A stretch of 64,000 nucleotides of DNA, taken from the NCBI RefSeq assembly GCF_051903065.1, contig NZ_CP178438.1. One strand, 5' to 3'. The notes beneath the pieces are model-generated. The model saw only the letters and a program-made list of their open reading frames with translations. It made no database searches and was not told where the DNA came from. Shown one piece after another: positions 51,005 to 52,890 of the stretch. The stretch's first letter is position 1, and each line of letters starts with the position of its first letter. The translations under genes and the position numbers were made by a program. The stretch is from Escherichia coli (lineage in GTDB: Bacteria > Pseudomonadota > Gammaproteobacteria > Enterobacterales > Enterobacteriaceae).

Positions 51005-51567
51005 AGCAAGCGAACGTCCACAGCGTCCATACCTGCGGCACGGGCCGCCTGAATACCGAAATCGGCATCTTCAAAGACCACACACTGCGTCGGTTGCACG
51101 CCCATACGCTGCGCGCACAACAAAAATGTGTCTGGCGCGGGTTTATGGTGTTTGACGTGATCGGCAGCGACGACGGCGTCAAAATAACGGCGTAATCCCA
51201 GGTGATCCAGCAATGCCTCAGCGATGGCGCTTTCACTCCCCGTTCCTACAGCCATTGGGCGACGACCATGCCAACTTTTCACCACTTCAACAAGAGGAAG
51301 CGGCTCGACACTATCCAGCAGCATACTTCTTACTGCTTCTGTTTTTTCACGCGCTAACGCATGCGGGTCGAGATCGGCCTGATTCAGCTCAATAATTGCC
51401 TGAGCAATACGCCAGGTGGGCGATCCATTAAGCGCAATCATCGCCTGAACATCGTACTGAAGACCGTAGTGCCCTAATACTTCGCGCCACGCTTTACGGT
51501 GCGTAGGCTCCGTATCCAGGATTGTGCCATCCATATCAAAAATTAAACCTGCATAACGCTCGTACAT
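51001..51567 (-). CDS. yqaB: HAD-family sugar phosphatase YqaB
   Basis: 188 aa with IFDMDGT HAD motif. Confidence 0.9.
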   Translation of the reverse strand: MYERYAGLIFDMDGTILDTEPTHRKAWREVLGHYGLQYDVQAMIALNGSPTWRIAQAIIELNQADLDPHALAREKTEAVRSMLLDSVEPLPLVEVVKSWHGRRPMAVGTGSESAIAEALLDHLGLRRYFDAVVAADHVKHHKPAPDTFLLCAQRMGVQPTQCVVFEDADFGIQAARAAGMDAVDVRLL

Positions 51568-51847
51568 GGTCTTCTCGCAAGTCGAAAAATATGACGCTAC
51601 TTTAGCGTAATTGCTTGATTTTGTCGCTGATGGCGAAGGAGAAGAAAATTCAGGAAATGGATAAAGTAGTTATTTAGAAATGAGATATTTTTGAAGGAAA
51701 TTTTTTGGAGAAGATGGTGCATCCGGGAGGATGACTCACTGGCGTTCGCCCTTCGGGCCGTTGCTAAAGCAACGTTATCCTTCCTGGTGCCTGCGGTTAA
51801 TTCCGCTACCTCTTCGATATCTTCATTGCTGAAGATTTCGGAGAATA

Positions 51848-51924
51848 TGGTGCATCCGGGAGGATTCGAACCTCCGACCGCTCGGTTCGTAGCCGAGTAC
51901 TCTATCCAGCTGAGCTACGGATGC
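51848..51924 (-). tRNA. argQ: tRNA-Arg (anticodon ACG)
   Basis: Reverse complement is GCATCCGTAGCTCAGCTGGATAGAGTACTCGGCTACGAACCGAG...CACCA. Confidence 0.9.
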
Positions 51925-52122
51925 ATCGGGAAAATTTATTTTACTGCTGATATTGATATCGCTACTAAAGCCATATCAAGTAAGAGATGGTGCATCCGGG
52001 AGGATTACTCGCCTTGCGGCTCGCCCTTCGGGCCGTTGCTGGCGCAACGTTATCCTCCCTGGTGCCTGCGGTTAATTCCGCTACCTCTTCGATACCTTCA
52101 TTGCTGAAGATTTCGGAGAATA

Positions 52123-52199
52123 TGGTGCATCCGGGAGGATTCGAACCTCCGACCGCTCGGTTCGTAGCCGAGTACTCTATCCAGCTGAGCTACGGATGC
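52123..52199 (-). tRNA. argZ: tRNA-Arg (anticodon ACG)
   Basis: Identical tRNA-Arg sequence. Confidence 0.9.
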
Positions 52200-52261
52200 A
52201 TCGGGAAATTTATTTTACTGCTGATATTGATACCGCTACTAAAGCTGTATCAAGTAAGAGA

Positions 52262-52338
52262 TGGTGCATCCGGGAGGATTCGAACCTCCGACCGCTCGGT
52301 TCGTAGCCGAGTACTCTATCCAGCTGAGCTACGGATGC
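52262..52338 (-). tRNA. argY: tRNA-Arg (anticodon ACG)
   Basis: Identical tRNA-Arg sequence. Confidence 0.9.
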
Positions 52339-52402
52339 ATCGGGAAACTTACTTTACTGCAGATTTTTTGATACCGCTACTAAAGCCGTATCAAGTAAGA
52401 GA

Positions 52403-52479
52403 TGGTGCATCCGGGAGGATTCGAACCTCCGACCGCTCGGTTCGTAGCCGAGTACTCTATCCAGCTGAGCTACGGATGC
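52403..52479 (-). tRNA. argV: tRNA-Arg (anticodon ACG)
   Basis: Identical tRNA-Arg sequence. Confidence 0.9.
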
Positions 52480-52482
52480 AAA

Positions 52483-52575
52483 TGGCGGTGAGGCGGGGAT
52501 TCGAACCCCGGATGCAGCTTTTGACCGCATACTCCCTTAGCAGGGGAGCGCCTTCAGCCTCTCGGCCACCTCACC
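52483..52575 (-). tRNA. serV: tRNA-Ser (anticodon GCU)
   Basis: Reverse complement is GGTGAGGTGGCCGAGAGGCTGAAGGCGCTCCCCTGCTAAGGGAG...CGCCA with long variable arm. Confidence 0.9.
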
Positions 52576-52890
52576 ACACGCCTCTTACGAGTGCTTCGAA
52601 GAACTTGTTTATCGCTCATCGTCGCTGCGTGGCGCACATATTACTTTCTGAGACTTATAAGTCAAACAATTTTTCCCACACTTTTATCGTTTGCACACTT
52701 CACGCTCAATTAGTCTGTAAAAACGTCAAAAAGAGTGTTTTATCAACAGAAAAACGGAGGTCTGACAGATAGCAGTAATGTAAAAAAATGGAGACTTAAG
52801 TTGAATGAACGGGAGTAAAGCGAAAAGACTATAGAGTGAAGGAGAAATTTTGAGGGTGCGTCTCACCGATAAAGATGAGACGCGGAAAGA

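Follow-up and report, generated by a model that had tools for sequence, protein, structure and literature searches.

The 2 extra units in the arginine tRNA operon of this Escherichia coli are tRNA-linked repeats (TLRs), relatives of rtT RNA that belong to an already known class of elements. They lie in a window of 64,000 nucleotides, the whole stretch of DNA that was analyzed, and we refer to them as U1 and U2. U1 is the counterpart of the internal raZ repeat of strain K-12 and U2 that of the terminal raQ repeat, while raV is missing here. We consider it likely that these raZ- and raQ-type units are co-transcribed with the tRNAs and released by tRNA 3'-end processing; the RNA so released, for which no function has been demonstrated, is probably dispensable in the laboratory. 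Their assignment to the TLRs is based on position, on sequence and on homology: both units are located directly 3' of a stable-RNA gene, on the same strand and inside a tRNA operon; their terminal 19 nt (U1) or 18 nt (U2) match the 3' end of the upstream gene; and they are homologous to catalogued K-12 TLRs, with near-identity to the units of the arg operon. [quoted passage not shown] 2021, PMC8144298). These repeats, first seen by Egan and Landy (1978), were catalogued by Rudd (1999), and K-12 has a total of 22 at ten loci, with one to five at each (PMC8144298). The strain table of the same paper names raQ, raZ and raV (EcoGene names) as the TLRs of the argY/Z/Q operon and also contains a strain deleted for all 22 TLRs (PMC8144298). 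Of the TLRs, only the three rrn copies have been assigned a function, in vitro binding of Hfq and CsrA, and the stringent-response claim for rtT, the sole functional claim, was withdrawn (PMC8144298). Within the literature on argQ/argZ we found nothing about the spacers. The TRIP1 repeats described in the Rudd paper were also considered and rejected, being an unrelated family found at other loci.

The operon lies on the minus strand between csrA and yqaB (positions 51560-52700 of the window) and corresponds to serV-argV-argY-argZ-argQ of K-12; all features described below are on the same strand. ARAGORN and the Rfam tRNA model identified one tRNA-Ser(GCT) and four identical 77-nt tRNA-Arg(ACG) genes. 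The first gene of the operon, equivalent to serV, is the tRNA-Ser(GCU) at 52483..52575 (ARAGORN; 56.8 bits with the Rfam tRNA model), which is annotated also in the 100%-identical RefSeq match. The region is 100% identical to that of E. coli ECNB21-M121, in which only the tRNAs and yqaB are annotated. A gap of 3 nt separates tRNA-Ser from the first tRNA-Arg (copy 1, 52403..52479), which occupies the argV position. Copy 1 is followed by a plain 64-nt spacer without TLR (52339-52402), at the place where raV sits in K-12, and then by copy 2 (52262..52338), a plain 62-nt spacer (52200-52261) and copy 3 (52123..52199). The spacer after copy 3 measures 198 nt and consists of the 135-nt U1 and an ordinary inter-tRNA spacer of 63 nt (51925..51987) with the sequence type of the plain spacers. 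This leads to copy 4, in the argQ position (51848..51924), and 3' of this gene are the 133-nt U2 and then the flank toward yqaB. Each tRNA-Arg copy was identified by ARAGORN, the Rfam tRNA model and sequence read-out. A consensus scan gave a promoter-like site upstream of serV (TTGACT, 16-nt spacer, TAATAT; 52638..52665), a match that is not above shuffle expectation, and, between U2 and yqaB, a terminator-like hairpin with a T-run (51594..51608) that is a candidate for the operon end.

U1 (51988..52122) and U2 (51715..51847) are supported by sequence read-out, match to the Rfam RtT model, alignment with the K-12 arg and tyrT units and folding. The tRNA-Arg 3' end (plus strand TGGTGCATCCGGGAGGA...) was found by the repeat finder 6 times in the array, in the four genes and at 51715 and 51988. 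The last 19 nt of U1 (AAUCCUCCCGGAUGCACCA, 51988-52006) are an exact copy of the 3' end of tRNA-Arg with its CCA, and so are the last 18 nt of U2 (51715-51732). This repetition of the tail in extra units is far above chance. The unit-specific DNA joined to the tails amounts to 116-117 nt, and U1 and U2 are near-identical (repeat family D2, 196 nt, 96% identity). U1 begins at the base that follows the CCA of copy 3, and U2 likewise after the CCA of copy 4. The possibility that the units are tRNA genes or pseudogenes was rejected: ARAGORN calls five real tRNAs only, the Rfam tRNA model finds nothing on the units even at E<=10, and the only tRNA parts recognizable in the units are the acceptor and T-stem strands. 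A first-pass annotation, made from the sequence alone, had reported four intact tRNA-Arg(ACG) genes spaced 275, 139 and 141 bp apart, and these distances are correct when measured from start to start. It had also recognized two additional units that carry the tRNA 3' end joined to near-identical spacers, in agreement with our results, although the positions given for them (about 51713 and 51984) miss the repeat starts by a few bases. Its description of the units as degenerate repeats, made of a truncated tRNA and a spacer, is not supported as it stands: what it took for a spacer is the structured and conserved core of a TLR.

Folded together with its pseudo-3' end, as had been proposed there, this "spacer" yields a minimum free energy of -59.9 kcal/mol for U1 (z = -6.5) and of -47.5 kcal/mol for U2 (z = -4.45). 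The fold is composed of a 5' extended hairpin, a small hairpin, a 13-bp closing helix, and three hairpins inside this helix. In U1, the 5' extended hairpin immediately follows the CCA of the tRNA (unit positions 4-37; 52086..52119), and a hairpin of other sequence occupies the same place in units from Enterobacter, Citrobacter, Siccibacter and a metagenome-assembled genome (MAG). The small hairpin, GCGG-N6-CCGC (unit positions 42-55; 52068..52081), was obtained both by folding and with RNAalifold, and its pair 43-57 varies from GC to AU in the alignment of Arg-type units. The 5' strand of the closing stem, GCACCAGGGAGGAU (52052..52065; fold, RNAalifold and pairing test), is the complement of the tail derived from the tRNA, and its sequence is similar to the 5' strand of the tRNA-Arg acceptor (GCAUCCG) fused to the 5' strand of the T stem (GGAGG). 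The conserved core consists of the hairpins CGUUGC-GCCA-GCAACG, GCCC-GAA-GGGC and GCC-GCAA-GGC (52011..52049; fold, RNAalifold), and the tRNA-derived tail AAUCCUCCCGGAUGC-ACCA (51988..52006; read-out, fold) provides the 3' strand of the closing stem and a free ACCA. The complete helix reads GCACC(A)GGGAGGAU / AUCCUCCCGG(A)UGC, in which GGGAGGAU and AUCCUCCC are the strands of the closing stem and ACCA is left unpaired. In U2 the closing stem is weaker (GGAAGG, resulting in an A.C mismatch) and hairpin 3 differs. As modeled, the closing helix is an acceptor/T-stem minihelix that carries the conserved core in place of the T loop. When folded singly, 17 of 23 distinct Arg-type units, drawn from 6 genera (Escherichia, Citrobacter, Enterobacter, Superficieibacter, Siccibacter and one MAG), adopt the architecture of U1. 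In TLRs more generally, the modeled design combines a continuous acceptor/T-stem helix and a free ACCA with a conserved domain of three or four hairpins for the T loop, and it recurs across Gammaproteobacteria behind at least eight tRNA families.

The structure is conserved by compensatory changes. The RNAalifold consensus of 18 Arg-type units, a small sample with many close kin, contains 27 pairs, 5 of them with compensatory double changes; in hairpin 1, CGUUGC/GCAACG is replaced by CACUGC/GCAGUG, and the pairs of hairpin 3 vary among GC, CG, UA and AU. The pairing between the tail and its upstream complement co-varies with tRNA identity across Gammaproteobacteria. A set of 94 distinct TLRs, representing 32 different tRNA tails, was tested with the 5' strand placed immediately upstream of the GAGAA or AACG motif, an anchor that is wrong for some Ser units. 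This strand paired with its own tail at 5.0 of 8 tRNA-specific positions, while swapping the tails between tRNA types in 2,000 permutations gave a mean of 3.60 +/- 0.11 and a maximum of 3.98 of 8 positions. Duplex energy was -15.5 kcal/mol with the cognate tail and -11.7 with non-cognate ones. Part of this pairing could reflect descent from the tRNA's own 5' strands instead of selection. The closing stem shows A.C and not G.U in several alignment cells (GGAAGG variants), and wobble pairs alone therefore do not settle on which strand the pairing matters. Published R-scape/CaCoFold work gives covariation support in the RtT family. Locus-specific details are kept across genera, such as the GCCAC..GUGGC hairpin 3 of Pro-type units, which argues for long vertical retention under constraint and not for recent spread.

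The core of the Arg units is common to the K-12 TLRs of tRNA-Lys (lysT operon and lysV), tRNA-Pro (proK) and tRNA-Tyr, each of which carries the tail of its own tRNA, and it is shared by the serX TLR from hairpin 2 onward, where hairpin 1 differs. A pattern scan of one genome per species detected at least 169 units in at least 120 stretches, with the core located behind at least 8 tRNA families. Among the matches listed, the tails are those of tRNA-Lys, Tyr, Arg(ACG), Arg(CCG), Pro, four Ser isoacceptors, Gln and Asp, those of Gln, Asp and Arg(CCG) occurring in Gammaproteobacteria other than E. coli, and the hosts are Enterobacterales, Xanthomonas, Aliidiomarina, Aliiglaciecola, Aliamphritea, and MAGs of Halieaceae and Woeseiaceae. 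In Photorhabdus, the units consist of entire tRNA-Lys bodies that hold the core within their T loop. Both units match the Rfam RtT model (RF00391) in full length, with 31.2-33.1 bits for U1 and 22.0 for U2, which is below the 45-bit gathering threshold, and model positions 50-130 align to them with high posterior probability. The 3' half of RtT is present in the Arg units, namely hairpin 1, the CCCGAAGGG hairpin, GA..GAGUAAUCC, and the tRNA tail ending in CCA. In the alignment, the 5' module GAUGAGAA-(CC..GG)UUCGAC (GAUGAGAA...GGUUCGAC) and the next hairpin are absent from the Arg units, in which GGAU is fused directly to AACGUUGC with no RtT 5' module between them. The K-12 TLRs of tRNA-Tyr (133-137 bits), Pro (101), Lys (47-60) and Ser (46) pass this threshold; 2 of the 3 serX copies do so and one scores 36 bits, and the K-12 arg units have no RtT listing at E<=0.01.

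Comparison of strains revealed precise presence or absence of units, with boundaries at the duplicated tRNA 3' end. Seven architectures were found in nine E. coli arrays (S, tRNA-Ser; A, tRNA-Arg; U, unit). The array of this window is S-A-A-A-U-A-U and that of K-12 is S-A-U-A-A-U-A-U. M15 has S-A-U-A-U, BA92 has S-A-U-A-U-A-U, and both FDAARGOS_1258 and CS5L have S-A-A-A-A-U. A 40-nt 5'-hairpin remnant is present in O157:H7 4276 (S-A-A-A-[40-nt 5'-hairpin remnant]-A-U) and in RIVM_C039227 (S-A-U-A-A-[remnant]-A), the latter with no terminal unit. At least one full Arg-type unit occurs in 5,352 of 5,426 complete E. coli genomes (98.6%), and such units are unannotated in all of the matches listed. 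Of the 5,426 genomes, 3,668 (68%) have a raV-type unit and 32%, like this window, do not. The 40-nt remnant, which retains the 5'-hairpin module only, was found in 654 genomes (12% of 5,426), and in approximately 489 of 5,426 (9%) the terminal unit is missing and the last tRNA-Arg is joined straight to the flank. Junctions were counted with junction-specific short queries; whole-array BLAST coverage merges repeated pieces. In arrays that lack the unit, the flank joins the tRNA CCA exactly as it joins the pseudo-CCA elsewhere (U2 boundaries in RIVM_C039227), which points to gain and loss across direct repeats. The comparison shows that copy number changes through recombination or slippage, involving either the tails of 18-19 bp or the identical 77-bp tRNA genes. 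The recombination history suggested in the first-pass annotation is thus supported, with units gained or lost precisely at the duplicated tRNA 3' end, and the outcome that it had set against its reading, an identical structure in all strains, was not observed, as the copy number of the array is polymorphic.

Because they are inside the tRNA transcription unit, U1 and U2 are very probably transcribed, and their location between the serV promoter-like site and the terminator-like hairpin (51608..51594) suggests that they are co-transcribed with the tRNAs. A unit would be produced within the polycistronic tRNA precursor, and its 5' end would arise from the cleavage by which the upstream tRNA acquires its mature 3' end, by analogy with rtT RNA and RrB. 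The tRNA-like helix and CCA would then direct 3'-end processing of the unit itself, as for a tRNA, probably through RNase E cleavage immediately 3' of the unit and subsequent trimming by exonucleases. The predicted product is a discrete, stable and structured RNA of approximately 130 nt. We infer such excision by the tRNA-processing machinery because analogous RNAs behave in this way: the annotated K-12 rttR RNA starts 7 nt past the CCA of tyrV and has its 3' end precisely at the pseudo-CCA, RtT RNAs were detected by RNA-seq in Klebsiella, and the 3' end of RrB is located 3 nt beyond the duplicated 5S tail, at an RNase E-type site (PMC8144298). The listing of an all-22-TLR deletion strain and the natural polymorphism suggest that the released RNA is dispensable, and its conservation suggests that it is not neutral. 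TLRs, the Arg units among them, might be tRNA minihelix mimics, an idea that we regard as quite improbable. If it were true, the RNA would act as a growth-rate-coupled decoy or sensor by engaging the machinery that recognizes the CCA end or the acceptor stem (RNase P, RNase T/PH, the CCA-adding enzyme, and conceivably synthetases or RelA), and the whole-tRNA-Lys arrays of Photorhabdus would be the ancestral or full-length form.

Other explanations for the units were weighed against processing of a TLR from the tRNA precursor. They could be inert scars of unequal crossing-over, in which truncated tRNA-Arg 3' ends are joined to a meaningless, unconstrained spacer that gives no discrete product. 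The array is indeed recombinogenic, gaining and losing units precisely at direct repeats, and the strain table includes the mutant deleted for all 22 TLRs (PMC8144298). However, the "spacer" is a core common to the TLRs of other tRNAs and other genera, its hairpins are kept by compensatory changes, changes in its 5' strand follow the tRNA tail, variants specific to a locus are retained in different genera, and 98.6% of the E. coli genomes keep at least one unit. Conservation and covariation already largely refute inert scars, which we consider very unlikely. The units could also be the remnant or miniature of a tRNA-targeting insertion, the core having invaded tRNA genes in the T-loop region through events that were integrase-type or driven by homology; the displaced tRNA 3' end would have stayed behind as an attR-like direct repeat, and the units would live on as selfish or neutral passengers. 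Units are flanked by direct repeats extending from the T loop to the CCA, and integration sites of the T-loop class are typically bounded by such repeats, as Williams is said to have described in 2002. The occurrence of one core behind at least 8 tRNA families and its position within the T loop of whole tRNA-Lys bodies in Photorhabdus are also in line with an insertion. Nevertheless, the units carry no integrase or other cargo, their cores are locus-specific and vertically inherited across genera with no recent exchange, and the structure-preserving covariation implies a constraint at the RNA level, making this explanation quite unlikely. It concerns the origin of the units and not their present function, and is compatible with their being processed as TLRs.

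Two further proposals assign a product to the units. An excised unit could be a trans-acting regulatory RNA or sponge that binds a protein or sRNAs, with an output tied to the transcription rate of the operon. Precedents for this are RrA/B/F (Hfq, CsrA) and the 3'ETS of leuZ (sRNAs) (PMC8144298), the unit RNA is conserved and predicted to be strongly structured, and it contains GGA motifs (AGGGAGGAU). Yet the InvenireSRNA probability of CsrA binding is <0.01 for all 19 TLRs of tRNA operons (PMC8144298), the GGA motifs are within the paired closing stem of the fold, the copy number and even the presence of units differ between strains, and there is no known target; we judge a regulatory RNA to be unlikely. 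The other candidate product is a small basic protein resembling the Tpr of the tyrT locus: a 23-codon TTG-start ORF in U1 (51976-52047, minus strand) is preceded by AGGGAGGA, with a Shine-Dalgarno-like sequence 5 nt upstream, and has the QRPEGR frame in common with K-12 Tpr. This ORF is broken in U2 and in K-12 raV and raZ, in which the loop CUUUAG creates a stop two codons past the TTG; in the fold, the "Shine-Dalgarno" and the start codon both lie hidden within the closing stem and hairpin 1; and the variation tracks base-pairing and not codons. Coding of a Tpr-like protein is extremely unlikely and was rejected, the ORF being present in U1 only and not conserved between copies or orthologues.

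Within the window, the units are catalogued arg-operon TLRs in a common strain variant and have little weight as a finding. The TLR family has remained a puzzle as to its role since 1978: it is structured, shows compensatory changes, and is found behind many tRNAs across Gammaproteobacteria. The Arg-type units are left unannotated by RefSeq/PGAP and are missed by the Rfam RtT model. Their natural presence/absence polymorphisms offer ready-made isogenic-like contrasts for functional tests, and the helix formed by tail and complement provides a concrete, testable model of processing.

Several known RNAs resemble the Arg units in part. The 3'ETS of leuZ (Lalaouna et al. 2015, cited in PMC8144298) is, as described in that citation, likewise a by-product of a tRNA precursor that persists as RNA. 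In the same description it differs from the Arg units in being a short, unstructured and Hfq-dependent sponge with known sRNA partners, and it appears there without duplicated tRNA tail and without conserved multi-hairpin core. RrA, RrB and RrF, located after 5S rRNA, belong by definition to the same TLR family, are transcribed with the upstream stable-RNA operon, and form discrete RNAs with the 3' end at the duplicated tail (PMC8144298). Unlike the Arg units they have a 5S rRNA tail and are placed between two terminators, and their in vitro binding of Hfq and CsrA contrasts with the prediction that TLRs of tRNA operons do not bind CsrA (PMC8144298). The rtT/RttR RNA and the 178-bp tyrT repeats (Egan and Landy 1978; Bosl and Kersten 1991) share with the Arg units their position directly after a tRNA gene and an end that equals its 3' 19 nt, and also the pairing of this tail with an upstream complement in the closing stem. 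The tyrT repeats and the Arg units are homologous over the 3' 80 nt, comprising GUUGC-loop-GCAACG, GCCCGAAGGGC, GA-hairpin-GAGUAAUCC, and the tRNA tail. With about 45 nt less sequence, the Arg units have neither the GAUGAGAA...GGUUCGAC module nor hairpin 0, and no Tpr-type ORF. K-12 itself has three units, after argV, argZ and argQ, whereas the window has two, the raV type being absent, and the hairpin-1 loops are swapped relative to K-12 (GCCA in U1, UUUA in U2). Otherwise, raZ corresponds to U1 and raQ to U2 almost base for base, with the same tRNA-Arg tail of 18-19 nt and like boundaries.

The tandem-unit arrays of Photorhabdus caribbeanensis (NZ_RCWB01000021.1; comparison stretches L015 9046-9538, L016, and L017 5420-7870, in their own coordinates) comprise at least 13 tandem units of 175 bp each, located 3' of genuine tRNA-Val/Lys genes. 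The unit consists of a near-complete tRNA-Lys(UUU) body, including the acceptor, the D arm, the anticodon arm, the 5' strand of the T-stem and UUCGA, and its T loop holds an inserted tRNA-linked repeat (TLR) core of approximately 63 nt followed by AUCCUGCACGACCCACCA. Many unit copies carry acceptor-stem mutations. These units may be the full-length form ancestral to the short E. coli TLRs, or a tRNA/TLR recombinant. For the short Lys TLRs of the K-12 lysT-valT-lysW-valZ-lysYZQ operon (L009 562-730, 851-1017, 1155-1321, and 1377-1544), the match to the Rfam RtT model (54-60 bits) covers both the preceding tRNA-Lys gene and the TLR, the tRNA-Lys body being the part aligned to the 5' half of the model. 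Such an alignment over the tRNA-Lys body is consistent with long-form TLRs being degenerate tRNAs that carry an insertion in the T loop.

Among the matches listed, a TLR-type core with its cognate tRNA tail was also found far outside Enterobacterales, in Xanthomonas maliensis (L049), in L045, L061, L073, L083, and L087, and in several gammaproteobacterial MAGs, and tRNA-Gln, Asp, and Arg(CCG) also precede such elements. In these outlying elements, complementarity between the closing strand and the tail extends to as many as 14-16 nt (e.g., UGGGGGACUGGGAU / AUCCUAGUCCCCCA). Both the host range and the tRNA types are lower bounds, the true range being wider.

Within the raZ-type unit of the window (51988-52122) and the L025, L031, and L050 units, the first bases (UAUUCUCC, window 52115-52122) are similar to the tail (UAAUCCUCC). 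When 23 units were each folded singly, 6 of the folds paired these first bases, and not the tail, with part of the 5' strand of the closing stem (GGGAGGAUA, window 52052-52061), a predicted pairing that possibly represents an alternative structure. A 102-nt spacer variant (L004 1326-1427, E. coli O157:H7 4276; L006 661-762, RIVM_C039227) has neither the core nor the tRNA tail: of the unit it retains just the 5' hairpin, in a 40-nt version (UAUUCUCCGUAAUCAUCAGUGAUGAUGGUUAAGAUGGA), with a U-rich stretch after it. Because this remnant, present in 654 of the 5,426 complete E. coli genomes compared and absent from the window, keeps the 5' hairpin alone, the hairpin looks like a separable module of the TLR unit.

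Among the listed E. coli genomes (H31-H38), RefSeq/PGAP has no annotation under the 51988-52122 and 51715-51847 units, and the tRNA genes are the sole features annotated at the arg-operon locus of the K-12 record. Downstream of the K-12 proK TLR, a REP-type element (L012 776-855) matches Rfam naRNA4 (CssrE) with 69 bits on the + strand, above the 59.5-bit threshold, and with 51 bits, under it, on the opposite strand. This element is unrelated to the proK TLR.

In the K-12 serX (L011), proK (L012), lysV (L013), and lysQ (L009 1654-1830) terminal TLRs, the intrinsic terminator is part of the duplicated segment, giving the order tRNA, terminator, TLR core, tRNA tail, and the same terminator repeated. 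The arg-operon units differ in having no such terminator in front. Like RrB, a TLR downstream of 5S rRNA for which transcription by terminator read-through has been reported (PMC8144298), the terminal TLRs of these K-12 loci would be transcribed only via read-through of the terminator.
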